From Methanopyrus kandleri AV19 (GTDB lineage: Archaea; JAADCQ01; Methanopyri; Methanopyrales; Methanopyraceae): a DNA stretch of 32,000 nt. Below, in pieces: positions 6,774 through 32,000 of the stretch. Positions within the stretch are counted from its first letter, which is position 1, and each line of letters starts with the position of its first letter. The notes below the pieces were generated by a model, which searched no databases, had not been told where the DNA came from, and saw only the letters and a program-made list of their open reading frames with translations. A program made the translations under genes and the position numbers. Location: contig NC_003551.1 of the NCBI RefSeq assembly GCF_000007185.1, forward strand, positions 690,001 to 722,000, given 5' to 3'.

Positions 6774-7287
6774 GATCAGCGGGTTCGGCGGTCAAGGGAT
6801 AGTACTCGCCGGCGTGGTTCTGGGCCGGGCCGCCGCGGTTTACGAGGGGTACAACGCCGTGCAGACGCAATCCTACGGGCCGGAGGCCCGGGGCGGTGCC
6901 TCGCGCTCGGACGTGATAGTATCCGACGAGGAGGTCATGTACCCGTACGTACGCCGACCCGACTTCCTCGTGACTATGTCGCAAGAAGCCTACGAGAAGT
7001 ACGTGGGGAGCGTTCCCGAGGACGGTCTCGTCGTCTACGACTCGACGCTCGTCGAACCCTCCCGCGAGGACGTCGAGCACGTGGGCGTCCCCGCGACCGA
7101 GCTCGCCGAGGAAGAGCTCGGGCTCAGGATCGTCGCTAACATGGTCATCTTAGGCGCGTTGCGTGAGCTCACCGGGATCGTCTCGTTCGACTCACTACGA
7201 AAGGCCGTCGAGGATTCCGTACCGCCCGGGACGGAGGACGTCAACGTCCGGGCCCTCAAGCTCGGAGCCCGGGAGGTGAGGGAATGA
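6757..7287 (+). CDS. korG: 2-oxoglutarate:ferredoxin oxidoreductase gamma subunit
   Basis: 176 aa. IRISGFGGQGIVLAG N-terminal motif of OFOR gamma subunits. It overlaps korB by 17 nt and sucC by 4 nt. Confidence 0.9.
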   Translation: MRKEIRISGFGGQGIVLAGVVLGRAAAVYEGYNAVQTQSYGPEARGGASRSDVIVSDEEVMYPYVRRPDFLVTMSQEAYEKYVGSVPEDGLVVYDSTLVEPSREDVEHVGVPATELAEEELGLRIVANMVILGALRELTGIVSFDSLRKAVEDSVPPGTEDVNVRALKLGAREVRE

Positions 7288-8363: not shown

Positions 8364-8366
8364 CCC

Positions 8367-12372: not shown

Positions 12373-13082
12373 CTTTCAGCCACTCCCTTGAGGTATTCGC
12401 CCACCAAGCGGGCGGCCGTCACCGGCGACACGTGGCTTTCGACCGTGGGACAGAGCTCGACTACATCTAGGTGAGCACGCTTCCGACCGGCCCATCTCAA
12501 GATGTCGGCGCAGAGGCGGTACGGGAGTCCCCCCGGTTCTGGAGTGGTTACACCCGGGACTACGGACGGATCCAGGACGTCGAGGTCTAGCGACACGTAG
12601 TCCACGTCGTCGATTACCTCGGTTATATCTCCGTGATCGACGGAGACCACGTGCTCGTGCTCGCGGAACACGTCGTACTCTTCCCGGGACCAACACCTGA
12701 CGCCTACCAAGAACACCTCGTCGACGATCTCCAGGCAGCCCCGTAGGGCCCCGTCGTGACGTTCGGATCTACGGAGGTCCGGGTGCGCGTCCAGCCAGAG
12801 CAAACGCCGTGGGGTGAGTTCTTGAACGATTTCGGGCGTGATAGAGTGATCGCCGCCGAGCACCACGAATATCTCGGGCTCGCTTTCAGGCTCGAACGTC
12901 CTGAGGTTCCCCTCATCTACCAGGGTCAGGATTTCCAGCGGGTCACCGACCTCCGGGTCGTAAAAGTCCAGGGTGGAAGCCGCCGACCTCACGGCGTTCG
13001 GAGCCTCGGCTTGTCCGGTCGGGTACTCTGGGAGCACACGCTCCCTGGGAAGTCCGACTACGGCTACATCCGGGGATTTCAC
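12369..13082 (-). CDS. speB: Agmatinase / ureohydrolase (arginase family)
   Basis: Arginase-family Mn ligand motifs (LGGDHSIT, WLDAHPDL, SLDLDVLDP, TPEPGGL). The maximal ORF reaches a TTG at 13193, but that W/R/S-rich extension overlaps aIF5A by 77 nt. The in-frame GTG at 13082 gives MKSPDVAVVGLP, a typical family N-terminus, so the start call is inference. Confidence 0.8.
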   Translation of the reverse strand: MKSPDVAVVGLPRERVLPEYPTGQAEAPNAVRSAASTLDFYDPEVGDPLEILTLVDEGNLRTFEPESEPEIFVVLGGDHSITPEIVQELTPRRLLWLDAHPDLRRSERHDGALRGCLEIVDEVFLVGVRCWSREEYDVFREHEHVVSVDHGDITEVIDDVDYVSLDLDVLDPSVVPGVTTPEPGGLPYRLCADILRWAGRKRAHLDVVELCPTVESHVSPVTAARLVGEYLKGVAER

Positions 13083-13116
13083 GTCGTCGGATGAAAACGA
13101 GAGTGGGAAGCGGGGT

Positions 13117-13521
13117 TCACTCTTCCTCCTTGATTCCCACAATTTTACGCTTGCCCGCTGCCTCCATGTACTCCACCATGGTTCCCGGTTCAAGCTGCGA
13201 GGCGAGTTCCTCGTCCTCCGGCTTCTGAACTTCGAATGTCTCGTAGGTTTCCATATCCATCAGCTGCACCGTATCACCCATATCGGAGACTACCTGGGCT
13301 GTCTTCCGCTCGATCACCGGTACATCCACCTTCGCGTCCACCGGTTTAGTAAGCGTGCGCTTCTTACCGTCGAACAGCCCTACCGCTACGATCCGCGCCT
13401 TCGCCGAACCGTGCTTACCCGGTGAGGACGTGGTGTACTCCACAATCTTACACGGCTCGTCGTCGATCATGATGTACTTGCCCTTCTTAAGCTGCCGCAC
13501 CTCGACTTTCTTCACGGCCAC
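13117..13521 (-). CDS. eif5a: Translation initiation factor 5A (aIF5A)
   Basis: 134 aa. Hypusination loop [16 protein letters not shown]-fold C-terminus. GAAGGGGG Shine-Dalgarno-like string before the GTG start. Confidence 0.95.
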
Positions 13522-16279: not shown

Positions 16280-16693
16280 TTGACCACCTACGTCCTCGAT
16301 ACATCAGCATTAATCAAGGGTGTGCCTCCGGAGCTCCTGGACGGTCCCGCTTACACGGTTCCGGAGGTTATCGAGGAGCTTAAGGATGATCTTTCCCGCG
16401 TGAGGTATGAGGTTGCGTCGGTAAGGGTCAAGGAACCCGAAGACTGGGCGGTTCGCCGCGCGCGCAGGCGCGCTAAGGTCACGGGTGACCTACCTCGGTT
16501 GTCGAAGACGGACCTGAAGGTTCTCGCGCTCGCCATCGAGTTGATGGAAGAGCAGGACGTAGTCCTAGTCAGCTCCGATTACAGCGTCCAGAACGTGGCG
16601 CTTACACTGGGTATTCGGGTGTACGGGCCCGTCCACGGCGAGGTGGACGAGGTAATCGGGCCGGGGGGACGACGTTGGAGACCGTCGGTGTAA
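16280..16693 (+). CDS. nob1: Nob1-type PIN-domain endonuclease (pre-16S rRNA 3'-end processing family), no zinc ribbon
   Basis: YVLDTSALIKG, YTVPEVIEELKD, TGDLPRLSKTDLKVLALAIEL and VSSDYSVQNVALTLGI align with archaeal Nob1 PIN domains. The maximal ORF starts at GTG 16262. TTG 16280 has GGGGGGA 6-7 nt upstream and gives a family-typical N-terminus. Confidence 0.8.
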   Translation: MTTYVLDTSALIKGVPPELLDGPAYTVPEVIEELKDDLSRVRYEVASVRVKEPEDWAVRRARRRAKVTGDLPRLSKTDLKVLALAIELMEEQDVVLVSSDYSVQNVALTLGIRVYGPVHGEVDEVIGPGGRRWRPSV

Positions 16694-17529
16694 CGACAGT
16701 CGTGACGGTGTCGGGGTTGACGGGGTCGAAGCGTGTAGCAGCCCGTGTGGATACCGGTGCCGAGAACGACTCGATCGACCTGAAGCTGGCGTCGGAAATA
16801 GGCGCCGGCCCCGTCATCGGGGTGAAGAAGGTCCGCTCCGCTTCCGCTTCGCGGTTACGCTCCGAGCGTCGGCCCGTGGTTCACGTCACTTTGGAGCTGG
16901 CCGGAAGATGTCTACCCTCGGAGGCCACGCTGGCGGATCGCCGGGATATGCGGTACCCGATGATCGTTGGGCGTAAGACGCTACGCCGGGCGGGGGTCAC
17001 GGTCGACCCGTCCCGTGAGGAGGAACCGGAGGGGGACGAAGTCGATCCACGTCGCGTAGTCGGTACCTTAAAGCTTCACAAAAGACTCCTGAGGACCGTC
17101 GGAGAGAAGCGCGCGGTGACCCCTGCCGTCCTGGCACTTCAGCACGGGGGAGCGTGGTCGTACCGCGACGGTGATGTATCGTCGGTGGCCGTTCCTATTC
17201 GGAAATTGTCGAACGGTGTAGTGCGTGAAGATCTCTACCTGCTTCTCAACCCCGAGATCGAGCGCGCCGAGGGTACGTTAACTAGACTCGAGAAGTGTGG
17301 TCGCGAGAGAGTTCGGCGCGTCGCGAAGCGTCCACGGCGGCTTGAAGTACGACATGATGGTGGCGCCATCATCCGCGTCGATCCGGGGCGTAGACGCATC
17401 CGTGTTCGGGAGCTCGACCCGGGAACGCTCCGACTTGAAGGCATTCCCGCCGCCAACCTTCACCACGAGCTCTCTCACCTCATGGGGGACGACCTGGGCC
17501 CCAGCGTGCTGGAGTTCGAGGTCGAGTGA
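16675..17529 (+). CDS. Two-domain protein: N-terminal retropepsin-like domain (DUF785 / RimK-associated Zn_protease-type) and C-terminal peptide-deformylase-like metallohydrolase domain
   Basis: 284 aa. N-terminal VAARVDTGAENDSIDL...TLADRRDMRYPMIVGRKTL fits the DTGA retropepsin-like family. The C-terminus carries LALQ, LLLNPEIERAEGTLTRLEKCG and HHELSHLMG. These parallel PDF motifs GxGLAAxQ, EGCLS and HExDHLxG with Gln, Cys and both His retained. Confidence 0.6.
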   Translation: METVGVTTVVTVSGLTGSKRVAARVDTGAENDSIDLKLASEIGAGPVIGVKKVRSASASRLRSERRPVVHVTLELAGRCLPSEATLADRRDMRYPMIVGRKTLRRAGVTVDPSREEEPEGDEVDPRRVVGTLKLHKRLLRTVGEKRAVTPAVLALQHGGAWSYRDGDVSSVAVPIRKLSNGVVREDLYLLLNPEIERAEGTLTRLEKCGRERVRRVAKRPRRLEVRHDGGAIIRVDPGRRRIRVRELDPGTLRLEGIPAANLHHELSHLMGDDLGPSVLEFEVE

Positions 17530-19591: not shown

Positions 19592-20701
19592 TTACTTACC
19601 CCTTACGAGATGCGCCCATATTAGCGCCGAGAGCAACGTGAACGTAGCCAAGGCGAAGGAGTTCATCGCCCTAGAGAACAGGAATACTCCTATCAGTGAT
19701 TGGACTGAGAACGCGATCAGACAACCGAAGAGCATGGCCTCTCTCGCCAGGAATCTCGCCGTCATCCTACGCCTTCGTAGTTTTATGTACTCCGAGAGGC
19801 ACCTCGATCCCACGTATAGTGTGGCCGCGACCCATATGGACAGTAATACCGCCCCGATGTACCCGAAGTCGAAGGCCCAGGTGAACAAGCCAGGCAGCAT
19901 GTAATCGAGAAGGTCCTTTTTAACGACGAGTGCTCCATGTAGTGTAGGTACGTCGAGCCGGAACATCATGAGATATCCGACAGGCAGTGTGACGAACCCG
20001 TCACCGAAGCCCCGCCACTCGTATCCGGCGGGAAGCGCCTTCGTGGAGTGACCGATGATGTGCGTGTTCTTCGCCACGAACTCGAGTCCCGGTACGGTGT
20101 ATTCCGCGAATCGCTTGATACGGAGTGTCGGGCTGAACACGGGCTTATTCAGGACGTAAGCGAGCAGTTCCAGGAGACCGAGGAAACCTATGGCCATCAG
20201 CGTGGCCATCACGATCGACCTTTTGCTCATCTTAGCTGCTCGGGCGGCAAAAGCGCGGAATCTCGACTCCACTTTCAAGTACTTCGCTATGAAATGCTCC
20301 GTAAGCGCCCAGCATAGGAACCAGGAGAGTAGGAAGTCACGATGCATAATTCCTCCGACCATTCCCACGTACACCCATAGGAGATTGAAGTATGGCCGAG
20401 TACGTCGGGCCGCCGTGATACCACGGGTTTCGAGCAGTTGCAGGAGGTACCTCGAGGTCGCCCAAGCGGCGAGTGCCAGTGGGCCGAACGGGTGCGTAAA
20501 CTCGTGGCGTGATACGGGGAGGAACAGCGAGAAAGCGTCCACGGTGAATAGAAGGGCCAGCACTCCCAGTGTGAAGAGGGACAGTGAGAGGACCCTCTGT
20601 ACCGTTACCGAGGAATAGCTCAGGGCGAACGGTATCGTCAGGTGGGTGATCACGAAGAAGTCCAGGAGGGCTTCACCCGTGTTATAGGGGACCACGTACA
20701 A
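19592..20701 (-). CDS. Polytopic membrane protein (about 9-10 TM with one large loop), unknown function; last gene of the wall cluster
   Basis: 369 aa. I count six hydrophobic segments, then a ~90-aa hydrophilic loop (res ~185-275), then three more segments. The TTG start is 1 nt after the upstream stop. Confidence 0.7.
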   Translation of the reverse strand: MYVVPYNTGEALLDFFVITHLTIPFALSYSSVTVQRVLSLSLFTLGVLALLFTVDAFSLFLPVSRHEFTHPFGPLALAAWATSRYLLQLLETRGITAARRTRPYFNLLWVYVGMVGGIMHRDFLLSWFLCWALTEHFIAKYLKVESRFRAFAARAAKMSKRSIVMATLMAIGFLGLLELLAYVLNKPVFSPTLRIKRFAEYTVPGLEFVAKNTHIIGHSTKALPAGYEWRGFGDGFVTLPVGYLMMFRLDVPTLHGALVVKKDLLDYMLPGLFTWAFDFGYIGAVLLSIWVAATLYVGSRCLSEYIKLRRRRMTARFLAREAMLFGCLIAFSVQSLIGVFLFSRAMNSFALATFTLLSALIWAHLVRGK

Positions 20702-20702
20702 G

Positions 20703-21953
20703 TTACCACGCCCGCAGCCTCCGATTTACGAGCTCTCTGATTCCTCCGAGCACGATCAGCGCAACTCCTACGGCGGAGCTGATTAGACCGAGGGAGTGTA
20801 GTGTCTCAGGGGAGATCGGGGTCTTCAACGGCGGCTTTTTGTACCCCTCCGGTAGCGGACGCATGTAGATAGTGATCAGGTTGGCCTCGGGTTCCACTTT
20901 GACATCACCCGGTAGTATGTAGTCGTACCCCAACAGTGTGTTGTTGTCTATGTCGGAGTCGATCGCGCGGGCGATGTCCTCCGGCTGCTTCTTCCCGGCT
21001 TGGACCAGCGTCTGGACGGTCTCGACTATCGACACTTTATCGTACACGCTCTTGATCCCGTAGACCCGGACGATCGGCTGGTCCTTCCTTACCGTGATCA
21101 TGTCTCGGGCAACCTGCCAGGCGTACTCCGTTCGGAGGGAGGACCCACAGACGGGACACCGCGAGTACTTGGAGGCCGCCGGGTAGGCGACGCTCCATCC
21201 ACATTTGGGGCAGACTTTACGGTAGGCTGTGTCCATCGGGATGCCGCGCGCGTTGAGCTTGGGCGGGACGAAAGTGTCACCCGTCGACAGACCGGCGGTG
21301 ATGTTGACTACACCACCTCCGTACTTCTCTCCGGACTTCTTGGCCACGTAACCCATGATCCTCGTCACTATCTCCGTCGCGGGTAGACCGTCCCTGATCA
21401 TCCTGCCGGCCATGATGGCGGCCTCTATTCGGACCTTCGTAGCGGTGCCGTACATAGGGTTGCCCGGCGTGTTACGCAGGTGGATTACGGCGCACTTGAC
21501 GTTCTTGGGTATACGGACGATGTTAGGGCCTCCGCTGCTGTGGTACTGCTTGATGATGATCTTGTTCCCTTTCACGATCACCACGGCGATATCGTAGCTT
21601 CCGCCCACCGCAACGCCCTTCCCGGGGCCTCCGACCAGAAGTCGGTCCGTGGGTGACCGGCTGATACCGGCCCTCACGGCACTTTCTATGTCCTCACCCA
21701 GCTCTAACGCCCGTATACACGCCAGGATAGCCTCCAGGCGTGCCGTACCCTTGCTCAGACCTCCCGCTAGGACGGCTACGTGTAGCTTCTTGGACACTAG
21801 GAACGTCGACTGGAACATGTTAGGAGCGAAGGACATCGAGGCTGCGGCTGCACCGTTGGGATCCTTGCCGCTGGGGTCCGTGATCACGATCATGTTGAAG
21901 GTAGCGGACGCCCCGGAGACCAGTGCCAGGAGCGCGATCAGCGGGATCAGCAC
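20703..21953 (-). CDS. Exported, C-terminally anchored protein with an Ntn-hydrolase/DUF1028-like N-terminal domain and an internal Cys4 ribbon
   Basis: 416 aa. Signal-like N-terminus MLIPLIALLALVSGASA followed by TFNMIVITDPSG...GAAAAS. Compare the DUF1028 start MTFSIVARDPxTGxxGVAVAS. CPKCG-x14-CPVCG at res 248-269. C-terminal TM segment LGLISSAVGVALIVLGGI. Confidence 0.65.
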   Translation of the reverse strand: MLIPLIALLALVSGASATFNMIVITDPSGKDPNGAAAASMSFAPNMFQSTFLVSKKLHVAVLAGGLSKGTARLEAILACIRALELGEDIESAVRAGISRSPTDRLLVGGPGKGVAVGGSYDIAVVIVKGNKIIIKQYHSSGGPNIVRIPKNVKCAVIHLRNTPGNPMYGTATKVRIEAAIMAGRMIRDGLPATEIVTRIMGYVAKKSGEKYGGGVVNITAGLSTGDTFVPPKLNARGIPMDTAYRKVCPKCGWSVAYPAASKYSRCPVCGSSLRTEYAWQVARDMITVRKDQPIVRVYGIKSVYDKVSIVETVQTLVQAGKKQPEDIARAIDSDIDNNTLLGYDYILPGDVKVEPEANLITIYMRPLPEGYKKPPLKTPISPETLHSLGLISSAVGVALIVLGGIRELVNRRLRAW

Positions 21954-21972
21954 ACGGATCGCGGGGTCCCCC

Positions 21973-22422
21973 CTACCTCGGCAGTCCGTAGTCTTCGATC
22001 ACCCGGACCACGACGACCCCTGATCGTTTGATCGTGATCTGGACGGATCGAATGGGTTTGATCTTCGTTCCCGGGATCACGCTCCTCATCGCGTATATCC
22101 TCGCCCTCCTGATCGCCTCGTGCAGCGGGATTTTCTTGCCTTCCGGGGTGATGAGGGTTCCGCCCTTGATAACCGAACCGGGACGCAGGCCCGACGCCAT
22201 CACGTTGCTACGTATGACCTCTTCCGGCAGGAAATCGCAGCCGACTACGTCGATACCTATGATCCTGAGTCCCTCTTGCTTGGGTACCGGACGTGCCGCC
22301 CACGCTGTGTACTCCGCGATTCTTCCGATGCTGAGGAGTAGAGCACCCATCAGCATGATCGCCAGGTTACGCCGGGAAACGGGCCACGGTTTGATCCACT
22401 TCCTCTTCCTTTCCTCTTCCAC
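21973..22422 (-). CDS. N-terminally anchored small protein with a POTRA/FtsQ-like domain
   Basis: 149 aa. Basic N-terminus plus TM segment (LAIMLMGALLLSIG). LRIIGIDVVGCDFLPEEVIRSNV...GLRPGSVI ... IRSVQITIKRSGVVVVRVIEDY follows the beta-alpha-alpha-beta-beta pattern of FtsQ/DivIB POTRA domains. The start is 2 nt after the upstream stop. Confidence 0.55.
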   Translation of the reverse strand: MEEERKRKWIKPWPVSRRNLAIMLMGALLLSIGRIAEYTAWAARPVPKQEGLRIIGIDVVGCDFLPEEVIRSNVMASGLRPGSVIKGGTLITPEGKKIPLHEAIRRARIYAMRSVIPGTKIKPIRSVQITIKRSGVVVVRVIEDYGLPR

Positions 22423-22424
22423 CG

Positions 22425-23855
22425 CTAGATCGCCCCCATATCGCGCAGGACCTCTCGAGCAGGTTCCATTCCTTGGGCTCCTCCCAGTAGAATCACGGTG
22501 TCGTCGTCCGCCAAGTCCAGTGCGCGCTCCAAAGCGTCTTCTAACCGATCGTAGTGCTCGTAGTCGATGCCGGAGCGCTCCAGTTCCTCCAGGAACGCCC
22601 TCCGCTCCTCAGGCCGCACTACGTTAGCATCGTCCACGAGGCCCTCTGATGAGGTCGCGATCACGTGGACGTGGATTCCCTCGTCCTGTAGATCCTTCGC
22701 GCCTTCAGCCAGCGCCCGAGCGATTTGACGGTTAATGTCGACGCCACGCGACCCGCGGATCGCGAACACAACAATCACCTTGGAGCGACCCAACCGTCGC
22801 AGGGCGCGAACAGTGGCGAGTACTCCGTCGGGATTGTGGCAGAAATCGTCGTAAATCAGCGGGTCGTCGCACAGGCGTTCGAACCTCCGCTTCAAGGGTT
22901 GGTACGTCCTCAAGCCTTCGGCGATATCCTCCCGATCTATTCCTAGAGCTCCCGCGGCGGCTACGGCGGCCAACGCGTTGTACAGGAAGTGGTCCACCGG
23001 TAGGGGGAACTCCCGGACGGGTATTAGGGGTTCTTCGTCCAGTACTATCCACTCCTCCCCGTCGCGTTCCTCAATGTGGGAGTATCCTTCGTCCCATCCG
23101 TACCATACCGTCTCCACACCTTCCCTGGTCATCCGCCGTACGTACCGATCGTCACGGTTGAGCACCGCGATACCTCCCTTTCGTAGGGCCCGCACGACAC
23201 CGTATACAGCGTCAACCATCTCTTCCAGAGAGGAAACCAGGTTCGTGTGGTCCACCCCGACGTTCGTCACGACCGCCAGCTCGCATTTGAGGGCCTTCGC
23301 CATCCGGTAGGCGTGGTCCTCCATTATTCGACCCGTAGGTAAGCCTTGTACCTCAGATACCTCCACGCACAGGTAATCTTCCGGCCGTTCCTCGCGCAAC
23401 TCCATCGCGACCACGGGGTCTATGAGGGTGTTCTTCTCGGAACGGAAATCCGTGTTGCAGTAAGCATCGAAGCCGGCGGTATCGAGGATGTGGTGAAGCA
23501 AGTGATTCGTAGTCGACTTACCGTTAGTTCCCGTCACGCAGATCGCGGTAGCGTCAGGGGCGCACTTCTCACGGGCTACGCGCAGAGCGTACTCGTTCGC
23601 CCGATCCACCTCCGTCAGGATCAAGGGGATTCCGAGCTCGTCGCATCTCTCGATCAGCTTGCCGCGCGGGTGTTCAGTCACCAGACATGCCACGCCTCTC
23701 TCCGACGCGATCTCGGCACCTTTATCGTCCAACCACCATCGGATCACTACATCTCCTTCTTTCGCCCTTCCTAACGTGGAGAACCATCCGGCGATCATAC
23801 TATCCGGGTCGCCTGAGCGTATTTCCCCTTCCACATTCTCAGCCAGCTCCCTCAC
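22425..23855 (-). CDS. Mur-ligase-family peptide ligase (MurE/MurF-like architecture), presumed pseudomurein peptide ligase
   Basis: 476 aa. P-loop VTGTNGKSTT. Central-domain VTNVGVDHTN. C-terminal DDFCHNPDG (compare DYAHNP/DxAHTPD). N-terminal domain of the MurE/F type. Confidence 0.85.
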   Translation of the reverse strand: MRELAENVEGEIRSGDPDSMIAGWFSTLGRAKEGDVVIRWWLDDKGAEIASERGVACLVTEHPRGKLIERCDELGIPLILTEVDRANEYALRVAREKCAPDATAICVTGTNGKSTTNHLLHHILDTAGFDAYCNTDFRSEKNTLIDPVVAMELREERPEDYLCVEVSEVQGLPTGRIMEDHAYRMAKALKCELAVVTNVGVDHTNLVSSLEEMVDAVYGVVRALRKGGIAVLNRDDRYVRRMTREGVETVWYGWDEGYSHIEERDGEEWIVLDEEPLIPVREFPLPVDHFLYNALAAVAAAGALGIDREDIAEGLRTYQPLKRRFERLCDDPLIYDDFCHNPDGVLATVRALRRLGRSKVIVVFAIRGSRGVDINRQIARALAEGAKDLQDEGIHVHVIATSSEGLVDDANVVRPEERRAFLEELERSGIDYEHYDRLEDALERALDLADDDTVILLGGAQGMEPAREVLRDMGAI

Positions 23856-23876
23856 CGTGAGCTTCAGCAGCGCCCC

Positions 23877-24947
23877 TCACCCCACGGAGATCCAGAGTGC
23901 CACGGCGGCGAACACCGCTCCGGCGGTCCAATGGAGCGCCACAACCACGGGTTCGGGTAGGTCGTACTTGTACTGGATATGGTGGTGGAGAGGTTCCACA
24001 GCCAACCGGATCACGCCGGCTCGGTGAAGCAAGCTGATGAGCGTGGACAGTACTGGGACTCCTAAGGCGATCATAGCAGGTATCTCGATCTTGTAATATA
24101 GTGCTCCTGCCGCGTAAGCCGCCCCTAAGAAGCAACTCCCCGTGTCTCCCATGAAGATCTTAGCCGGGTATCTGTTATGGAACAGGAAACCCAGGGACGC
24201 TCCGGCAAGTGATGCGAAGAAGGCAGCACCCGGAAGCTGGCCCTGTCCCAGGCATACGCCGGAGCAAGCCAGTGAGGCCAGGAACAGCAGCCCGGCGGCC
24301 AGACCGTCCATCCCGTCGATGAGGTTCACGGCGTTGGTAGCGCCGACAATTCCGAACACCGCGACCGGATAGAAAAGGTACGAGAGGTTCCAAACGCCGA
24401 CCTTGGGTATCCAGAGCCATGTGGCGGGGACGATAGGAAGAACGAAGAGGGCGGCGCCAGTCTGTAGTGCGAGTTTCTCACGTTCACTCAATTCTTTCTT
24501 GATAGGCACCTCACCGACGATCTCGATGGCATCCGGGTCCTCTTCGAGTATCCTCTTCAGATCACGTTTCGCTTTCTCCGTGGCTACACGTGCCTCCTCG
24601 CCCGGTTGTAGTATGAGTCTTCCCAGCTCGATCGGTCGATTCGAGACGTTCCGTACGACCTTCTGGAACTCTTCCACCTGCAATCCGAGCAGGTCGTCCA
24701 CTATTCCTAGCACCATCATGGGGAGCGCTGAAGCTATAGGAGGGAGCGCCTGGATGGAAGCTAGGAGGGGGCCGGACGCCGTTCCCAGTAAGATCCCCAG
24801 ACCTCCCATGATGGGCATGCCGGACTTATGCGCGTGTTCCGTTACGATCGGGCGGTCTACCACGTTAGCTTCCCGCATGTACTTGCGGAGTAATCCAACC
24901 GTTACGGCCGAGGTTACTGTGGAGAGTGTAAACGTCTCGATGATCAT
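23877..24947 (-). CDS. MraY/WecA-family (GT4) polyprenyl-phosphate sugar-1-phosphate transferase
   Basis: 356 aa, multi-TM. Motifs GIVDDLLGL (DD), NAVNLIDGMDGLAAG and FMGDTGSCFLG. GGGGAG precedes the ATG. Confidence 0.85.
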   Translation of the reverse strand: MIIETFTLSTVTSAVTVGLLRKYMREANVVDRPIVTEHAHKSGMPIMGGLGILLGTASGPLLASIQALPPIASALPMMVLGIVDDLLGLQVEEFQKVVRNVSNRPIELGRLILQPGEEARVATEKAKRDLKRILEEDPDAIEIVGEVPIKKELSEREKLALQTGAALFVLPIVPATWLWIPKVGVWNLSYLFYPVAVFGIVGATNAVNLIDGMDGLAAGLLFLASLACSGVCLGQGQLPGAAFFASLAGASLGFLFHNRYPAKIFMGDTGSCFLGAAYAAGALYYKIEIPAMIALGVPVLSTLISLLHRAGVIRLAVEPLHHHIQYKYDLPEPVVVALHWTAGAVFAAVALWISVG

Positions 24948-24963
24948 CGTCCGCTCCCCACGG

Positions 24964-26103
24964 TCATAAGTACTCCTCGATTTCCCTCAGCCTCCGTCGA
25001 TACTCACGTTCGGCCCGCTTCACGTCCGCTCCTGCAGCCTTGAGCGCTGAGCGGAGCCTCGTGAGGGCTTCTTTAAAAGAGTCCCCCCTCACGGTGACAC
25101 GACCACCTACGTCGAAGCGTCCATAGTACTCGTAGAACACGTGGTACACTCCGCCGTCGAACATCTCACGCAGGGGATCCTTGTCCGTAGGGCGCCAAAC
25201 GGGACACTCGATGGCGCACCATAATTTCCTTATCTTCGGTGGCCTCCATCGATCGGCCGCCATATCGACCAGCTCACGGAGCGGCCATATTCCCGTGCAT
25301 CCGGACGTCATGTACCTGGTGCCGCTGGGTCTCGGGTTGAACTCGAGGAACCAGAACTCGTTCTCCCGGACTACCACGTCGAAGTCCACGTTGCCCTCCA
25401 GTCCCAGATGTTCCACGACTCTTACCGCGCACCTTCTTATCTTGCGCTCCACGGACGGGTCGATCGGGGCCGGGCTCATCCGCATACGATCGATCGGATG
25501 ACGACGGTCCGCCGTGGATCCTTTGAACACCGGAACCAGCGGCACCACCTCACCGTCCCAGGATAGAACTTCGATCGAAACTTCCGCACCTTCGATGAAC
25601 TCCTCTACCAGCTTACGTCCCGATACTCTCGGCTTGTGCGTCTCGTGGACCGTGACTCCGAGCCCCGCCTGTGACCGTGGATCCTTCACGACTACCGGTG
25701 GACTGATCGATGGCCTTTCGTTCTCGACGACTTCCCATTCAGGCGTCGGTACGTTCAGTTCTTCGAAGGCGCGTTTCGTTCTCACTTTATCGATCCCGAT
25801 TTCAACGCTCTCGCGATCAGACGCCACAACCCGGATACCTTCGGCTTCCAGCTCTTCTTTCATCTCCCCCACTGCCGGTAGCGGATCGTCTACACCGATG
25901 AGTGGTACTACACCGTCTACGTGCCGCTCGCGGGCGATTCTCGTGGGATGTTCCATACCGCGCGGTACGAAGTGCACCTCATCCGCCAGCTCCCAGTCCC
26001 TGCTCCTCGGGTTCGACTCGGTGAGTATACGGTACACTCCCGTGGAGCCGGCGTACTCCGCCACGTCCCGGAGTAGCCTCGCGCCGACGAAGAGTACCTT
26101 CAC
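24964..26103 (-). CDS. ATP-grasp ligase (carbamoyl-phosphate-synthase-like / Ddl-analogous)
   Basis: 379 aa. Pre-ATP-grasp Rossmann-like N-terminus, then KVRTKRAFEELNVPTPEW, VVVKDPRSQAGLGV, EEFIEGAEVSIEV and FLEFNPRPSG. A GTGA overlap joins it to the upstream Mur ligase. Confidence 0.8.
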   Translation of the reverse strand: MKVLFVGARLLRDVAEYAGSTGVYRILTESNPRSRDWELADEVHFVPRGMEHPTRIARERHVDGVVPLIGVDDPLPAVGEMKEELEAEGIRVVASDRESVEIGIDKVRTKRAFEELNVPTPEWEVVENERPSISPPVVVKDPRSQAGLGVTVHETHKPRVSGRKLVEEFIEGAEVSIEVLSWDGEVVPLVPVFKGSTADRRHPIDRMRMSPAPIDPSVERKIRRCAVRVVEHLGLEGNVDFDVVVRENEFWFLEFNPRPSGTRYMTSGCTGIWPLRELVDMAADRWRPPKIRKLWCAIECPVWRPTDKDPLREMFDGGVYHVFYEYYGRFDVGGRVTVRGDSFKEALTRLRSALKAAGADVKRAEREYRRRLREIEEYL

Positions 26104-27638
26104 CTTTCGTCCCCCAGCACTCGCTCGACTTCTTCAGAGATCTCTTCCCGGTACTTCAGCGGAGCCTCTCCGAACAACACTACCACTTCGCAGTCCGAGC
26201 GGAGCGCCTCCTTGAGACCGTCCAACACCTGCTCCCGAGAGGCACCCAGTGTACCCTTCTTCTCGAACGGCTTGGTGGCGCTCTCCGCTGCGATCACGTT
26301 GTCGGCGTCGACGCGGTCCATGACTTCGTACGCCGCGTACGATGCCACCACCACTAGGTCGGCGAGATCCGCAGCTCTTCTGAGTATCTCTTCGTCTCCT
26401 TCCGGTCCCAGCTCCGAAGCTACGGCGATTACCGCGCAGACGCGCCGCTCCCGGTAAGCCTCCTTCACGCATCTCAACGTCGCGTCCACGCCGGCGGGAT
26501 TATGGCCGTAGTCTAAGATCACGACTCGCTCGCCGTCGTCCCAGAGTACTTCTAACCTGCCCTCGACTCCTTCGAAGGACTGTAGCGCCTCTACCACGTC
26601 CTCCACATCAAGTCCCAAGAACTCGGAGCAGACGGCTATCGCCGCGAGGGCGTTGTAAGCGTTGTGGAGCCCCATCACGGGTAGTCGAACCTCGTACTCC
26701 CCATCGGGACAGATCAGTCGGAACCCGGACAAGTCAACGTCCGTAGCTAGGTAGTCCGGCTCGGGAGATCGCAGGCCACACTCCCGGCACTTGAAGGGAC
26801 CGACCCAAGGGAGGATCTCATGGACTTCAACGTGTCCGCCGCACCAGCACTCTTTTTCCGAGGTATCGAACGGTTCCACGTCCAACCCGTAGTACACGAT
26901 ATCGCCGTTGAAATCCACCACCTCGGGGGCACCAACTACCAACGGGTCTTGAGCGTTCAGCACGGCTAGCTCGATGGTGTCCGGCTCCAACAGTTCGGCC
27001 TCACATCTGGCGTACGTCAGGAAATCGCCCGCCTCGTTCAGATGGTCCGGGGTGATGTTGGTAACGCAGACGCACTCCACCTGGGATAACTCCGCGGCTT
27101 CCAGGATCTCCCCTCTCTTCCCGAAAGTTGCTATCTCTAAGACGCTGACGTCCCCTGGGAGACGCGCCTGAAGTGGGGGGAGTAATCCGACGTTCCCTTG
27201 CATGCCCGGCAAACCGTGGTGCGGGGCCTCGAGCCCGAGTTGCTCGCACACGTGCCTGATCATCGCCACAGTCGTGGTCTTCCCGTTGGTCCCACCGACT
27301 CCGATCACCGGTCGTGTGGGCGGTAACATGTCGAGGAGCTCCTTCACTTCCACGATTTCGCAGCCGTGATCCTCGGCCAGTCGGTACGGCTTAGCATCGC
27401 GTGATAGGCTCGGAGGAGGTACCACAACTTCGGCTCGTTCGAAGATCTCGGGTGGGTGGCCTCCCAATACGAGCTCCACGTTACTGTATTCGAGAAGCGT
27501 CTCGGCGAACTCGCACTCATCCCGGAGATCCGACGCGATCACATCGTATCCGCGCTCCGCGAGGACCCGGGCCGCTAGATTGCATACGGGCCCACAGACC
27601 CCGATCACGAGAACGGTCGACCAGGGAAGTTCGGCCAA
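26100..27638 (-). CDS. Mur-ligase-family enzyme with MurC/D-like Rossmann N-domain and a MurT-type Cys4 ribbon insertion
   Basis: 512 aa. VLVIGVCGPVCNLAARVLAERGYDV (N-domain). GVGGTNGKTTT (P-loop). VTNITPDHLN. LNAQDP followed by ECWCGG-x17-CRECGLRSPEPDY. LDYGHNPAG. Confidence 0.85.
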   Translation of the reverse strand: MAELPWSTVLVIGVCGPVCNLAARVLAERGYDVIASDLRDECEFAETLLEYSNVELVLGGHPPEIFERAEVVVPPPSLSRDAKPYRLAEDHGCEIVEVKELLDMLPPTRPVIGVGGTNGKTTTVAMIRHVCEQLGLEAPHHGLPGMQGNVGLLPPLQARLPGDVSVLEIATFGKRGEILEAAELSQVECVCVTNITPDHLNEAGDFLTYARCEAELLEPDTIELAVLNAQDPLVVGAPEVVDFNGDIVYYGLDVEPFDTSEKECWCGGHVEVHEILPWVGPFKCRECGLRSPEPDYLATDVDLSGFRLICPDGEYEVRLPVMGLHNAYNALAAIAVCSEFLGLDVEDVVEALQSFEGVEGRLEVLWDDGERVVILDYGHNPAGVDATLRCVKEAYRERRVCAVIAVASELGPEGDEEILRRAADLADLVVVASYAAYEVMDRVDADNVIAAESATKPFEKKGTLGASREQVLDGLKEALRSDCEVVVLFGEAPLKYREEISEEVERVLGDER

Positions 27639-27690
27639 CCGCGCACCCCGCCGAGGGGCTGGGGACGCGGTGAGTTGAACCTGTCGGGGA

Positions 27691-28695
27691 TCACGGCCGC
27701 GCTCCCGGTATCGTTCGGCCGTACTCGGCCAGTATCGACCTCATGAGCTTTTTAACGTCGCGAAGAAGGCGTTCGGCTTCCTCCCTGTCACCGGTCGCTA
27801 ACCGTACGAACGCTTCGATATCGAGGTGTTCCACCCGGTCGTCGATCTTTCCGTACTCCGACATTACGAAGTACAGTTGCGTGAACCTCTCCCTCCGCTC
27901 GACCCTGTTGAGGGTTCCGCGTACCAGCGACCTCAGGGCTTGACGTGCGTACATGAGCAGCCGGTACGTGAGGTCTCGGATGATTTCATCCTCATCTCTC
28001 GGTCCGTCCGGGATACCGTTTGGGAACGCTGCTTTCTCTTCCAACCCCAAGATATCCAGCACGCGTTCCGGATCCTCCTCTGGGGTCTCCGTCTCCCGGA
28101 GGTACGCTAGGGCCTCTTGAGGTGTTGCCACACCTTCCAGCATGATGGTACATGCGCGACCTGTCAGAGGGTTGTACCCGACCTCCTCTATGAACCTGTG
28201 CACGCCGTACGGACGGATCGGACACGTGTACTCGGGATTGAACCAGCCCAGACTGCTCACGATATCGCGGATGTCTTCCCACGTCCACCGACGGAGTGCC
28301 GGGTACCGGACCACGGTGACTCCTGGAGGGTAGGGGTGGGTAGTGCGTCTCCCGAACTTCCCGCGGAGCTCGTGACCGGTGAGGACTGTTGCGCATCCTA
28401 GTTCACGGGCGCGAAGGCACGCGGCGGTTAGGACGCTTCTACCACACTTCGTACATATCGGGCGTCCTTCCTTCAGAGCCCGCGCGAACCATTCTCGAAG
28501 TCGTAGCTTGACCACCTCGTGATCCACGCCGACGTGTTCCGCGGCTTTCCGGGCGTTCTCTAAACATGTCTTATCGGTGAACTCGTGGACTACTGTTACG
28601 GCTACCTTAACATTCCACCTATCGGCGGCGTCTATCAGCGTGGCTACACTGTCCTTACCGCCGGAAAGTGCTATGCTGGAGGGAGGGCTAGTCAT
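27691..28695 (-). CDS. PP-loop (N-type ATP pyrophosphatase) superfamily enzyme with an uncharacterised C-terminal helical half
   Basis: 334 aa. SGGKDS PP-loop at res 10-15. RPICTKCGRSVL...LGCATVLTGHEL resembles the TilS/TtcA/Ncs6-type core. Res ~190-334 match nothing I recognise. The ATG overlaps the gltX stop by 8 nt (ATGACTAG). Confidence 0.7.
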   Translation of the reverse strand: MTSPPSSIALSGGKDSVATLIDAADRWNVKVAVTVVHEFTDKTCLENARKAAEHVGVDHEVVKLRLREWFARALKEGRPICTKCGRSVLTAACLRARELGCATVLTGHELRGKFGRRTTHPYPPGVTVVRYPALRRWTWEDIRDIVSSLGWFNPEYTCPIRPYGVHRFIEEVGYNPLTGRACTIMLEGVATPQEALAYLRETETPEEDPERVLDILGLEEKAAFPNGIPDGPRDEDEIIRDLTYRLLMYARQALRSLVRGTLNRVERRERFTQLYFVMSEYGKIDDRVEHLDIEAFVRLATGDREEAERLLRDVKKLMRSILAEYGRTIPGARP

Positions 28696-30403
28696 GCGCG
28701 TACACAGCCCTTACCCCACCGCTGGAGACCTCTTCGAGTCGCACGAAGTACAGCCGTTCGAACTGGACGGTGCTGCCGGCCTGTTCGCGCTCGACGTTAA
28801 TTTCGGCGTATCCACTCTCAACGCTACCGTCCGGGCGGACGACCTCGCACCGTACTGCCTGGTCGGGCGGTACCCAGTGGACGATTTGAGCACCTTCCTC
28901 TTTCGCGATTCGGTAGTCGTCGCTGTGATACCTGCCTCGCAACCATCCGTCTCCGACTTCCTCGATCTCGACGTTGACGGCGTTCATCAGCCGAACTACG
29001 TCGCCCTCCCACAGGTCTTCTGCGTCTTCACCGTCCAACAGTGCTCGGGCCACGCCGTTCTCAGGATGTAGAATTAAGACCCTCTCTCCCTCATCCCGAT
29101 CGGGGTGTAGAGGCAGTCGGGCCAGGACCGACTCCTTCATCCCTTCGATCCGTAATTCGACAGGATCACGGACGAAGAAGTACCGGTGAGACTCAGGGTC
29201 GATCATCTTACGGTTCCGAGCGTAAAGATGCTCCCAGCTGAACGTCGCGTCCACGTCGGTCAGGCCGATCTCGAGGATAGTCTCACGTATTGCTTCCGGC
29301 TTAATACCCCGGCGTCGGAGGGCGCGTAAGGTAGCCACTCGGACGTCGTCCCACCCTGTGTACTCTCCTGAATCGATTCCACGGCGGATCTCGGAAGTGC
29401 TTAGCACGGCACCTTCAACCTTCAGAATCCCGTAGTGAACGTATTCCGGAGTGTCCCACCCCAGATGCTCGAACACGTACTTCTGACGCCGTGTGTTGGA
29501 CTCATGATCCTTCCCACGAAGTACGTGCGTGATGTTCATGAGATGGTCGTCCACAGCGACGGCGAAGTTCATCGTCGGCCACACAAGGTACCGAGAACCC
29601 GTCATCGGGTGCTCTTCTTCGACGATCCTGAACGCTATCCACTCCCTCACCGCGGGATCCGGGTGATCAACTTCGGTCTTGACACGTACGACGGCTTCTC
29701 CTTCTGAGAAAGTACCGTCCAACATCTCCTCCCAGAGCTCGAGGTTCTCCTCCTTATCCCGAGAGCGGCACGGGCAGGCTCGCCCCACGTCGCGGAGTCT
29801 CCGGAACTCGTCTGGATCACAGGTACAAACGTACGCCCCTTCCCGCTCCAGCAGCTCCTCGCAAACCATGTAATACAGTTCTATCCTGTTAGACTGCACG
29901 TACCGTTCGTCGATGTTGACTCCGAGCCACTCCAGATCCTCTTCGATCATGTCGTAGGCCTCAGGGTCCACGCGACGCGGGTCGGTGTCTTCAATGCGGA
30001 GGACTAAGGTGCCGTCGTACCTTCTAGCGTATTCGTCGTTAAGTACTGCGGCACGGGCGTGACCTATGTGGAGGGGACCCGAAGGGTTCGGTGCGAACCG
30101 AAGGCGAACGTTCCCCGGTTCAGCTCCGGGAAGGGGTTTGAGCCCTTCTTTGTCCCGGGCTACGTCTTCGCGCGGTCCTCCGAGTTCTTCCAGCTCGCGT
30201 CTGATTTCCTCTCCGGACATCTTGTTAACTTCGCGGACCACCTCTCTGACGGTCTTCAGGACTTCTTTCGCCCTAGGACGTAGCTCTTCGTGTTCCTTCA
30301 TGATCTTCTTCATCACCGCGTTGGGATTCGCCCTCCCACCGTATCGGGCCGCGTTCTCCAGAGCGTACCTGCGGACGAGATCTCGAAGTTCCTTCTCCTC
30401 CAC
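28688..30403 (-). CDS. gltX: Glutamyl-tRNA synthetase (archaeal type)
   Basis: 571 aa. Class I HIGH motif (PSGPLHIGHARAA). RIEDTDPRR. Archaeal/eukaryal-type anticodon-binding C-terminus. GTG start preceded by GGGGAG. Confidence 0.9.
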   Translation of the reverse strand: MEEKELRDLVRRYALENAARYGGRANPNAVMKKIMKEHEELRPRAKEVLKTVREVVREVNKMSGEEIRRELEELGGPREDVARDKEGLKPLPGAEPGNVRLRFAPNPSGPLHIGHARAAVLNDEYARRYDGTLVLRIEDTDPRRVDPEAYDMIEEDLEWLGVNIDERYVQSNRIELYYMVCEELLEREGAYVCTCDPDEFRRLRDVGRACPCRSRDKEENLELWEEMLDGTFSEGEAVVRVKTEVDHPDPAVREWIAFRIVEEEHPMTGSRYLVWPTMNFAVAVDDHLMNITHVLRGKDHESNTRRQKYVFEHLGWDTPEYVHYGILKVEGAVLSTSEIRRGIDSGEYTGWDDVRVATLRALRRRGIKPEAIRETILEIGLTDVDATFSWEHLYARNRKMIDPESHRYFFVRDPVELRIEGMKESVLARLPLHPDRDEGERVLILHPENGVARALLDGEDAEDLWEGDVVRLMNAVNVEIEEVGDGWLRGRYHSDDYRIAKEEGAQIVHWVPPDQAVRCEVVRPDGSVESGYAEINVEREQAGSTVQFERLYFVRLEEVSSGGVRAVYAHD

Positions 30404-30610: not shown

Positions 30611-30626
30611 GAAATTTCTATATAGA
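30611..30626 (+). promoter_or_regulatory. BRE/TATA promoter of tRNA-Lys
   Basis: GAAATTTCTATATAGA contains a purine-rich BRE-like GAAA plus TTTCTATATA. It is centred about 30 nt upstream of tRNA position 1, the canonical archaeal spacing. Confidence 0.55.
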
Positions 30627-30652: not shown

Positions 30653-30730
30653 GGGCCGGCAGCTCAGTCTGGCTAGAGCGCGGGACTTTTAATCCCGTGG
30701 TCCCGGGTTCAAATCCCGGCCGGCCCACCA
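30653..30730 (+). tRNA. tRNA-Lys (anticodon UUU), CCA encoded
   Basis: Folded by hand. Acceptor GGGCCGG/CCGGCCC. D-stem GCTC/GAGC with a GG loop. Anticodon stem CGGGA/TCCCG with loop CTTTTAA. V-loop TGGTC. T-arm CCGGG-TTCAAAT-CCCGG. Discriminator A plus CCA. Position 8 is C. Confidence 0.9.
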
Positions 30731-30848: not shown

Positions 30849-32000
30849 TTACATCCGCTCCAGCGTCGGAATTCCGAGGAGATTCATCAGGTTCTCCGCC
30901 ACGATCGTGAATGCCTCTACGAGCTTCAGTCGCGCCTCCCGTACTTCATCGTCCTCAACGTGCAGCACGGGAACCTCCTCGTAGAACGTGTGGAACGTCT
31001 TCGCCAGGTCGTACGCGTACTCGGCGAGGATGTCCGGGCGCCGCTTGCGCACGCACTGGGCTACGTGGCGTGGGAACTTCGACATCTTGAGGATCAACTC
31101 GAACGAGTGATCGTCGTTCAAGTATGCCGCATCGAAGCGGTTCACCTCCTCGTCTGCCTTCCGGAGGATCGACTTGGCCCTCGCGTAAGCGTACTGGATG
31201 AACGGTCCACCACGACGGAAGTCGAGGGCTTCGTCCCAGTCGAACTCTATCGGTTTGTTGGGACTCACTCTGGCGATAGCGAAGCGTACGGCCCCTATGG
31301 CGATCTCCTCCGCGATCTTCTCTCGCTCCTCGTCGCTCAGTTCCTCCGCTACGCCCGCTGCCTTCATCTTCTCGAGTGCGCGCTTCTTGGCTTCCTCCAG
31401 GAACTCGTCGAGCGTCACGTATCTACCCTTCCTAGTAGACATCGATCCTTCCGGCAGATGGATGAACTCGTAGAACACCACGTCGATACGGTCGGGGTTC
31501 TCCTCGAGCATGTCCAGTACGGCCCGTAGCTGTTCGACCGCTAACTTGTGATCCGCTCCTAGCACGTCTACCACGAACGTGGCTCGTCCGAGCTTCCAGA
31601 GGTGATAGGCGATGTCACGGGTGGTGTACAGCGTAGTGCCGTCGCTGCGCGTGAGTACGAGCTCCTTGTCGATTCCGTAGTCTTCCAGGTCGACTACCAC
31701 GGCTCCATCCTCGCGCTCCTCCGCGACTCCCATGTCCAGCAGCTTCTCCACGATCTCCAGTGCATCGCGCGCGAACTCGCTCTCGTACACGAATCGGTCA
31801 TGCGCCACCCGGAGGCGCTCCAGCGTTTGGATGTGCCCTCTCAGACACTCCTCCACTACGGTCTGGAACGCGTCGGCGATGCGCTCCGCTCGAGATTCTT
31901 CCTCCACTAGGTAACGTTCGTACGATCTCAGGAACCTCTCGACTACTTCCTCCAGCTCGGGATCTTCCTCGATCTCACGCGCGGCTTCAGTGTACAGCTT
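30849..32000 (-). CDS. argS: Arginyl-tRNA synthetase, C-terminal ~380 aa; 5' end outside window
   Basis: The frame stays open from the listed GTG at 31907 to base 32000 (KLYTEAAREIEEDPELEEVVERFLRSYERYL...). ArgRS catalytic-core and DALR anticodon-binding sequence is present (FVYESEF, TRDIAYH, GADH, MSTRKG, and a C-terminal ...LLGIPTLERM). Confidence 0.9.
   Translation of the reverse strand, partial: KLYTEAAREIEEDPELEEVVERFLRSYERYLVEEESRAERIADAFQTVVEECLRGHIQTLERLRVAHDRFVYESEFARDALEIVEKLLDMGVAEEREDGAVVVDLEDYGIDKELVLTRSDGTTLYTTRDIAYHLWKLGRATFVVDVLGADHKLAVEQLRAVLDMLEENPDRIDVVFYEFIHLPEGSMSTRKGRYVTLDEFLEEAKKRALEKMKAAGVAEELSDEEREKIAEEIAIGAVRFAIARVSPNKPIEFDWDEALDFRRGGPFIQYAYARAKSILRKADEEVNRFDAAYLNDDHSFELILKMSKFPRHVAQCVRKRRPDILAEYAYDLAKTFHTFYEEVPVLHVEDDEVREARLKLVEAFTIVAENLMNLLGIPTLERM

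Follow-up and report, generated by a model that had tools for sequence, protein, structure and literature searches.

The region described here lies on the minus strand of a 32,000-nucleotide (nt) stretch of the Methanopyrus kandleri AV19 genome (contig NC_003551.1, positions 690,001 to 722,000; hereafter the window, whose own numbering is used throughout). Between positions 19592 and 30403, nine co-directional genes run from gltX to a polytopic membrane protein. We consider it likely that this region corresponds, in M. kandleri AV19, to the published pseudomurein cluster, that two translation-related genes have become fused to its upstream end, and that its last three genes encode an assembly machine. 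The identity of the region as a pseudomurein cluster is established by homology, synteny and published assays. The cluster as such is already known; what is new is a set of fold-based assignments, which were not found in the literature searched.

Six of the nine genes (pMurC, ATP-grasp, MraY-like, pMurE, Mfer763 and Mfer764) are the known pseudomurein Gene Cluster 2. This was described by Subedi et al. (2021; PMC10117817) as Mfer760 (ATP-grasp), Mfer761 (MraY) and Mfer762 (pMurE), sometimes including pMurC or pMurD1, with the unknowns Mfer763 and Mfer764 invariably downstream; Lupo et al. (2025; PMC11915815) name it cluster A. The defining order (ATP-grasp, MraY-like, pMurE, then the Mfer763 and Mfer764 families) is present in the window, with pMurC included as in some species. 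Furthermore, the polytopic gene, the pseudomurein-specific OG0000796 of Lupo et al., follows as it does directly downstream of cluster A in Methanopyrus sp. KOL6 (PMC11915815). Nothing essential is different; the Methanopyrales add gltX and a PP-loop gene upstream, a linkage that goes unmentioned in the consulted parts of the two papers. The original prediction, made from the sequence alone, had recognised a pseudomurein wall-synthesis core, which is borne out by NCBIfam equivalog matches, synteny and the literature. It had also put forward four flanking genes, to its knowledge without assigned roles, as wall candidates, but three of these were already published as such, Mfer763 and Mfer764 in 2021 (PMC10117817) and the polytopic gene in 2025 (PMC11915815), although their functions were not.

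Curated NCBIfam models exist for all six core genes, and five of them were passed. The peptide ligase pMurC (26100..27638, minus strand, as are all nine genes) has a MurC/D-type N-domain and scored 641 bits with NF053645 (cut-off 560); its P-loop, GGTNGKT, lies at 27276-27296 and an archaeal Zn-ribbon insertion, CWCGG...CRECG, at 26775-26849. This ribbon had been noted as MurT-like; the insert is real, but had already been described in the Mfer336 crystal structure (PMC10117817). The lysine-adding ligase pMurE (22425..23855) scored 603 bits with NF053648 (cut-off 600). The MraY-family transferase (23877..24947), which moves the phospho-sugar-peptide to undecaprenyl phosphate, scored 452 bits with MraY_archaea NF053644 (cut-off 450) and matched Pfam Glycos_transf_4 at E 3e-33. 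The addition of Ala/Thr to UDP-Glu by PMurC, and the activity of PMurE, have been assayed by Cha et al. (2026; PMC12996149). The model not passed is that for the ATP-grasp ligase (24964..26103; Mfer760, 'Ddl_archaea' or small-CPS type; Pfam ATP-grasp_3, E 2e-17), which scored 319 bits with NF053643 'Ddl_archaea', under the cut-off of 500; the gene is the syntenic orthologue of Methanobacteriales genes, at 34-43% identity.

The nine minus-strand open reading frames (ORFs) and all eight junctions of the original prediction were reproduced exactly when the ORFs were checked. There is an 8-nt overlap between gltX (28688-30403) and the PP-loop gene (27691-28695), and the latter is separated by 52 nt from pMurC, which overlaps the ATP-grasp gene by 4 nt; gaps of 16 nt and 21 nt then precede the MraY-like gene and pMurE, respectively. 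Only 2 nt separate pMurE from the 149-amino-acid (aa) Mfer763-family ORF (21973-22422), which is followed after 19 nt by the 416-aa Mfer764-family ORF (20703-21953) and, a single nucleotide further on, by the 369-aa polytopic ORF (19592-20701). The predicted domains likewise agreed with the Pfam and NCBIfam calls: GluRS, an SGGKDS PP-loop N-terminus, two Mur ligases, ATP-grasp and Glycos_transf_4/MraY. The G+C content is ~60% all through the array. There is no run of at least five T on the coding strand across the 11 kb and no TATA-like motif in any internal gap; these absences are compatible with a single transcription unit, without proving one. The sole strong TATA element is a palindromic TATATA at 30619-30624, ~30 nt upstream of a divergent tRNA-Lys gene, and no recognisable promoter element was seen in the 220 nt upstream of gltX.

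Conservation of the array was assessed by tblastn of all nine proteins against 82 loci, five from Methanopyrales and ~77 from Methanobacteriales. Five other Methanopyrales genomes have the nine genes in the same order; since this order is kept while the proteins are only 60-83% identical to those of the window, the array is not a matter of chance. A divergent Methanopyrales genome, whose PP-loop homologue is 60% identical, has the same nine-gene array with eRF1 and argS upstream of gltX, and there the ends of the PP-loop gene and pMurC share 4 nt. In the Methanobacteriales loci the recurring part is only ATP-grasp-MraY-pMurE-(pMurC)-Mfer763-Mfer764, and at none of these loci does gltX, the PP-loop gene or the polytopic gene lie less than 10 kb away. 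It is clear that the conserved core of both pseudomurein orders is pMurC, ATP-grasp, MraY-like, pMurE, Mfer763 and Mfer764. Conserved synteny had been proposed as a check on the whole array; it held for this six-gene core and failed for the other three genes, which are linked to it only in Methanopyrales.

A genome scan with the Mfer764 alignment found a relative encoded in 223 of 185,579 species genomes, and the loci of 80 of these were detailed. At 78 of the 80, the gene immediately before the Mfer764 homologue is a Mfer763 homologue. Even in a Methanobrevibacter subgroup (loci L025, L029, L039, L050, L051, L057, L065 and L068), to which a metagenome-assembled genome (MAG) of M. olleyae belongs, the pair stays adjacent although it is separated from the ligases, with no ATP-grasp, MraY or pMurE gene found within 7-10 kb upstream of it. 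No wall-related conserved gene follows Mfer764 in Methanobacteriales; a small cytoplasmic ORF, an MBF1-like gene and PAN come next, all unrelated. The genomes of the 80 listed loci carry Methanobacteri*, Methanobrevibacter or generic archaeon labels, bar one. This exception, a MAG labelled 'Methanomicrobiales archaeon' (L013, JBNGDB010000017.1), has a pseudomurein cluster of the Methanobacteriaceae type which is complete and whose proteins are ~44% identical to those of the window, and its bin is probably mislabelled or contaminated. A phyletic profile had been suggested as a further check, and the expected restriction to pseudomurein lineages was seen for the Mfer764 and polytopic families but not for the PP-loop family.

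The two leading genes differ from the rest. gltX is a housekeeping gene encoding a canonical archaeal glutamate--tRNA ligase (NF003169, 790.8 bits, cut-off 516; TIGR00463, 677 bits, cut-off 402), and it is fused to the array in Methanopyrales only. Upstream of it are eRF1, argS (30849-31907, minus strand, cut by the window end) and a tRNA-Lys(UUU) gene, which lies between argS and gltX at 30653-30730 on the plus strand. A C/D-box small RNA suspected by eye upstream of gltX was dropped, as Rfam found the tRNA only.

The second gene (27691..28695) encodes a PP-loop ATP pyrophosphatase which is TtuA/NcsA/LarE-like and probably of the [4Fe-4S] type. Its PP-loop motif, SGGKDS (S11-S16), lies at 28648-28665, a CxxC motif (C81-x2-C84) at 28444-28455 and a third invariant cysteine (C158, in YTC) at 28222-28230. 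In an alignment of Methanopyrales with distant relatives SGGxDS, C81-x2-C84, TGHEL and C158 are all invariant; the TtuA/NcsA/LarE sulfur-insertases and DUF7411 proteins share SGGxDS, TGHEL, and CxxC with a distal cysteine. Against PDB sequences the family profile matched the PP-loop protein 8cnz (E 2.7e-9), TtuA PH0300 (E 4.6e-9, with the two CxxC motifs aligned) and NcsA, a [4Fe-4S] U34-tRNA thiolase (E 5e-7). The protein falls under every NCBIfam cut-off (LarE, 26 bits against 150; TtuA, 22.6 against 450), and it reaches Pfam QueC with 22.4 against a cut-off of 22 over the N-terminal 70 residues only. It differs from its Thermococcales relatives in lacking their extra N-terminal Zn ribbon (CxxC...CxxC), and carries a helical C-terminal extension of ~110 aa unique to Methanopyrales. 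Among 5.8 billion proteins its close homologues number eight, all from Methanopyrales. The next relatives, annotated as DUF7411 or 'QueC', come from Pyrococcus, Thermococcus and Methanothermococcus and are 31-34% identical over ~60% of the length; no Methanobacteriales homologue was detectable. The Thermococcales and Methanococcales are S-layer-only archaea. At the one locus inspected, the genes around a DUF7411 relative were not informative.

Judged by these matches, the PP-loop protein is probably an ATP-dependent, TtuA/NcsA-like enzyme, a [4Fe-4S] sulfur-insertase, and its gene is most likely part of the translation string that lies upstream (eRF1-argS-tRNA-Lys-gltX); the simplest reading is that a sulfur-insertase of the translation apparatus rides on the wall-gene transcript. 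The phyletic pattern and the motifs indicate that gltX and the PP-loop gene are probably lineage-specific passengers and not wall genes. Both had been counted as parts of the wall array. For gltX this does not agree with an ordinary archaeal GluRS, as its NF003169 match makes it, nor for the PP-loop gene with the missing Methanobacteriales homologue, the relatives in S-layer-only orders and a synteny with Mur genes that is found only inside Methanopyrales. The PP-loop gene thus fails under the refuting condition that the original prediction had set for its flanking genes.

At the other end of the array, the polytopic membrane protein (19592..20701) has a predicted SEDS (FtsW/RodA)-like fold. 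An AlphaFold2 (AF2) model from a 16-sequence alignment (pLDDT 79, pTM 0.78) was compared with the PDB by Foldseek; FtsW ranked first (8p1u_A, E 8.8e-3, prob 1.00, TM-score 0.47) and second (8bh1_A, prob 0.98), both entries being from divisome structures, and the remaining matches had prob of at most 0.13 and TM-scores of at most 0.23. Hydropathy, the model helices and the positive-inside rule predict nine transmembrane (TM) helices, inside loops rich in K/R and a large extracytoplasmic loop of 86 residues (185-270; 19892-20149) before the last three helices, a topology that fits the SEDS layout minus TM1. Conserved polar residues (E67, H70, H120, R121, H218, D234, D263, D266 and D277) are found in the outside loops, and the conserved motifs are HEFTHPFGP (20480-20506), MHRDF (20333-20347), KKDxxDYMLPG (19889-19921) and AFDFGY (19859-19876). 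An exhaustive HMMER scan of 1.84 billion representatives returned 30 relatives only, and the named members are all from Methanopyrales, Methanothermobacter, Methanosphaera and Methanobacteriaceae.

The similarity to SEDS proteins is best regarded as a fold-level lead only. Like the SEDS systems (FtsW/RodA with bPBP and FtsQLB), the protein has by prediction a helical fold closest to FtsW and, with conserved acidic residues in it, a large extracytoplasmic loop before the last three TM helices, and the adjoining genes encode single-pass envelope proteins. It differs in having no detectable sequence similarity (no SEDS, PF01098, match at E <= 10 in any of 16 family members searched with Pfam and NCBIfam), in having nine predicted TM helices instead of ten, in that equivalents of the catalytic Asp are candidates only, and in its product, which would be a beta-1,3 GlcNAc/GalNAc-talosaminuronic acid glycan. 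In the literature searched, no link of SEDS or FtsW to pseudomurein was found.

The surroundings of the polytopic homologues elsewhere were also recorded. The loci concerned are L094 (9140-9979), L106 (4812-5696) and L105 (4687-5727). In Methanothermobacter-like genomes a DUF1002 protein is encoded directly before the SEDS-like gene, and in Methanosphaera a DUF354 protein precedes it. On one contig the gene lies ~4 kb from a sortase/RcpC-like pair (Pfam Sortase, RcpC, DUF515) resembling 'cluster C' of Lupo et al., and L106 has a faint pseudomurein-binding-repeat (PMBR) protein nearby. These DUF1002, DUF354, sortase/RcpC-like and PMBR neighbours could be further partners of the polytopic protein. 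In the window, genes for a 2-oxoacid:ferredoxin oxidoreductase (POR_N, TPP_enzyme_C, POR) and a succinyl-CoA ligase occupy 4843-9230 on the plus strand, ~10 kb from the polytopic gene; the same set stands directly beside its homologue in Methanothermobacter and Methanobacteriaceae contigs (L094, 11081-14748; L106, 7425-9995). This proximity may be a relic of an older neighbourhood.

The exported protein of the Mfer764 family (20703..21953; NCBIfam Mfer764_fam, 571 bits, cut-off 560) was modelled from 64 sequences (pLDDT 84, pTM 0.74). From the N-terminus the model consists of a signal peptide, an alpha-beta-beta-alpha domain (~residues 18-235), a Cys4 ribbon (21144-21212), a small alpha/beta domain and a C-terminal TM helix, the anchor (20742-20792). 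Eight Foldseek matches were obtained at E <= 1e-3, and all are circularly permuted taspase-1 (best E 6e-7, prob 1.0); further matches of Ntn fold include the plant asparaginase beta-chain 4pu6_B (TMt 0.54), Anbu, the proteasome, PurO and bile-salt hydrolase. The predicted mature start, TFNMIVITDPSGKDPNG (21852-21902), has Thr18 as its first residue. This Thr is present in 63 of 63 sequences, and in 62 of them it is preceded by [VAS]-[AS]-A, a predicted signal-peptidase site. The model suggests that the domain is an Ntn-hydrolase-like alpha-beta-beta-alpha sandwich, and Thr18 is a candidate for its nucleophile because Ntn enzymes need such a residue at the mature N-terminus, where this invariant Thr is predicted to lie. 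The original description of this protein as Ntn-like is consequently strengthened by the taspase and asparaginase matches and by the invariant Thr at the predicted signal-peptidase +1 position.

What Mfer764 would have in common with type-2 asparaginase and taspase-1 (and, by mechanism, gamma-glutamyltranspeptidase) is an alpha-beta-beta-alpha sandwich and a catalytic chain that begins with Thr. There are also differences: signal peptidase, and not autoproteolysis, would uncover the Thr; the Mfer764 domain, of ~220 aa, is the smaller one, with an order like that of a circularly permuted construct, and there is no match to Pfam Asparaginase_2 in any of the 64 members; and a Cys4 ribbon, a C-terminal domain and a membrane anchor are added. 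The Mfer764 profile gave no match to PDB sequences.

The third protein, of the Mfer763 family (21973..22422; NCBIfam Mfer763_fam, 171.5 bits, cut-off 170), is a bitopic protein of 149 aa with a basic N-terminus, a TM helix (22324-22365) and a single extracytoplasmic POTRA-like domain (21991-22269). A profile from a 25-member alignment matched six PDB sequences, all of them BamA/YaeT POTRA domains (best E 9.1e-5), and one of the alignments covers a whole POTRA domain (39-120 against 71-149). POTRA, PF07244, is also the only Pfam family touched, by 5 of the 25 members (best E 0.0085, below the gathering score). The POTRA call made originally is therefore backed by a profile that matches BamA POTRA domains and nothing else. 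A comparison with E. coli FtsQ by hhalign was not significant (P 0.09). As far as the sequence allows a judgement, Mfer763 is FtsQ-like in layout, a TM helix plus a POTRA-like domain, and is not an FtsQ orthologue. When the three envelope proteins were searched as one concatenated 934-aa query no match was returned.

In the pathway as homology, synteny and published assays show it, the ATP-grasp enzyme acts at an early step, pMurC and pMurE extend the UDP-Glu-linked peptide and the MraY-like transferase attaches the precursor to undecaprenyl phosphate. We propose that the PP-loop gene is co-transcribed with the wall genes in Methanopyrales only and, from predicted folds, that the machine for extracytoplasmic assembly is encoded by the last three genes. 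In this machine the polytopic SEDS-like protein would be the polymerase, joining undecaprenyl-PP-linked disaccharide-peptide units into glycan strands. Mfer764 would be a membrane-anchored Ntn-type enzyme, its catalytic Thr18 exposed by signal peptidase instead of by self-cleavage; it may form an acyl-enzyme on the stem peptide, and transfer to the amine of a lysine or glutamate could then make a cross-link, while transfer to water could trim the peptide. The other two would be held together by Mfer763 as an FtsQ-style bitopic POTRA scaffold. It is possible, if doubtful, that these proteins make up a divisome-like pseudomurein synthase, with a SEDS-fold polymerase, an Ntn-type Mfer764 that cross-links or trims the isopeptide-rich stem and a POTRA protein, which was missed by earlier sequence searches.

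How far such a system resembles the bacterial dcw cluster depends on what is compared. In both, Mur ligases, MraY and an ATP-grasp ligase are tightly packed and co-directional, and by predicted fold the SEDS-like, POTRA-bitopic and exported catalytic proteins resemble ftsW, ftsQ and ftsI. The gene order is different, however, and murG, the murD-ftsW pair, ftsI/PBP, ftsL, mraZ/W and ftsA/Z are missing from the array; none of the nine ORFs corresponds to murG, ftsI, ftsL, mraZ/W or ftsA/Z, nor is there a pair with ftsW, by Pfam and NCBIfam against the E. coli reference order. Moreover, the putative cross-linker has a predicted Ntn fold and not a penicillin-binding fold, and it is only in Methanopyrales that the SEDS-like gene accompanies the cluster. 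Subedi et al. likewise concluded that the cluster does not mirror a bacterial dcw cluster (PMC10117817). The claim that the array mirrors dcw logic fails for gene order and content (no murG, ftsZ/A, ftsI or mraZ/W) and stands as an analogy of parts by predicted fold; taken in that sense, the phrase may be more apt than the literature allows.

Several observations weigh against the reading proposed here. The SEDS similarity comes from one AF2 model built from 16 sequences, with a TM-score of 0.47; RodA structures are not among the Foldseek matches, and the polytopic profile has no match among PDB sequences. An hhalign comparison with a SEDS alignment (11 sequences, from E. coli and plasmid-borne genes) was colinear and motif-matching with a score of 21.8, but 7 of 30 block-shuffled controls equalled or exceeded this. 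In Methanobacteriales the polytopic gene adjoins no Mur gene; its neighbours are DUF1002 and sucC/kor genes, or DUF354. Mfer764 also resembles PP2C phosphatases, although by a weaker match (3pu9, E 1.6e-3, TMt 0.46), and hhalign against an 8-sequence Asparaginase_2 alignment (native, beta-only or circularly permuted) was not significant (P 0.03-0.09), with inconsistent registers. The POTRA matches of Mfer763 are weak, those to Pfam lying under the gathering score, and the FtsQ beta-domain is absent, the chain ending at residue 149 with no room for it. The published proposal for cross-linking is transglutaminases. As to the passenger status of the PP-loop gene, its 4-nt overlap with pMurC in another Methanopyrales lineage means that co-expression with the wall genes is real. 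Furthermore, M. kandleri pseudomurein was reportedly found by Kurr et al. in 1991 to be chemically unusual, with ornithine present and GlcNAc lacking, so that a lineage-specific wall role of the PP-loop gene is possible.

Separately, a number of motif pairs had been seen by eye between the polytopic and SEDS families (HEFTHP/QPSE, HRDF/QPDLG, LRIxR/RIxxF, DGYxTLP/YLPE, and KKDxxDY with FDxGY/HTDFIF with EExG); they were discounted, the hhalign score not being above reversed or block-shuffled controls.

Two other explanations have to be considered. In the first, all nine genes would be one functional dcw-like unit in which the PP-loop enzyme does the missing activation, for example by adenylating glutamate or a peptide, and gltX supplies or senses glutamate. 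PP-loop enzymes adenylate carboxyl or carbonyl groups. It is also true that the junctions are tight or overlapping throughout, that no promoter-like or terminator-like signals are seen inside the array, that the order is kept in every Methanopyrales genome examined, and that the Glu activation step lacks an enzyme, PMurA having given no Glu-P (PMC12996149). Methanobacteriales, however, make the same Glu-started peptide without the PP-loop family, whose relatives are in Thermococcales and Methanococcales; the CxxC...C motif and the TtuA/NcsA profile matches indicate Fe-S sulfur insertion; and gltX is a standard GluRS placed after argS and eRF1. This explanation therefore appears very unlikely.

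Alternatively, the envelope trio may act on pseudomurein but not as a synthase. Mfer764 would then be a hydrolase (an isopeptidase or amidase of turnover or maturation) or a PP2C-like phosphatase, and the polytopic protein either a flippase or, acting on another lipid-linked glycan, a polymerase or ligase of the Wzy/WaaL type. The known members of the taspase and type-2 asparaginase family hydrolyse Asp/isoAsp-type bonds, and PP2C folds are the next-best Foldseek matches of Mfer764. For the polytopic protein, one Methanothermobacter homologue is named 'Oligosaccharide repeat unit polymerase' at source, one family member touches TIGR04370 at E 1.7, and in Methanobacteriales its gene has DUF1002 or DUF354 neighbours in place of Mur genes. 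On the other hand, FtsW ranks first and second with no WaaL or Wzy structure among the Foldseek matches, the literature reports no other glycan polymerase candidate for the pathway, and the Mfer764 and polytopic families are confined to pseudomurein lineages and near-universal there (PMC11915815). We regard such a role as unlikely, though less so than that of a single nine-gene unit; the reading proposed above, whose synthase is itself tentative, is preferred to both.

If true, a divisome-like synthase would overturn the absence of FtsW and FtsQ counterparts and of transglycosylase and transpeptidase candidates that is stated in recent papers, among them that of Subedi et al. (PMC10117817), and would extend the bacterial ancestry of the pseudomurein pathway to the extracytoplasmic steps. 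How pseudomurein strands are polymerised and cross-linked has been a question since the pathway was sketched in ~1990. Each of three 'hypothetical' genes now carries a specific hypothesis that can be probed by mutation: for Mfer764 it concerns Thr18, for the polytopic protein the aspartates in the loop, and for Mfer763 the POTRA domain. The genetically tractable Methanothermobacter makes these hypotheses testable. The surface-exposed envelope proteins are also candidate inhibitor targets in gut and rumen methanogens. Treating gltX and the PP-loop gene as lineage-specific passengers, in turn, stops a false lead.

A few other genes near the cluster may be mentioned. Pseudomurein glycan synthesis needs nucleotide-sugar epimerases, and an NAD-dependent sugar epimerase/dehydratase (Pfam Epimerase, E 1.6e-69) is encoded at 2457-3386 on the plus strand, with CdhD-like ORFs (50-1000 and 1014-2402) on one side and a CooC/MinD-type ATPase (3907-4650) on the other. 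Adjacent, co-directional deoxyhypusine synthase and arginase-family (agmatinase-like) genes lie at 11479-13193 on the minus strand. A 284-aa protein with two stretches matching Pfam PF05618 ('putative ATP-dependent zinc protease') is encoded at 16675-17529 on the plus strand, 2 kb from the cluster end and on the opposite strand to it. Finally, in a divergent Methanopyrales genome a UppS-type prenyltransferase gene (PF01255; L001, 1-472) lies ~8 kb upstream of gltX on the same strand, in the long run of co-directional genes to which the wall cluster also belongs.

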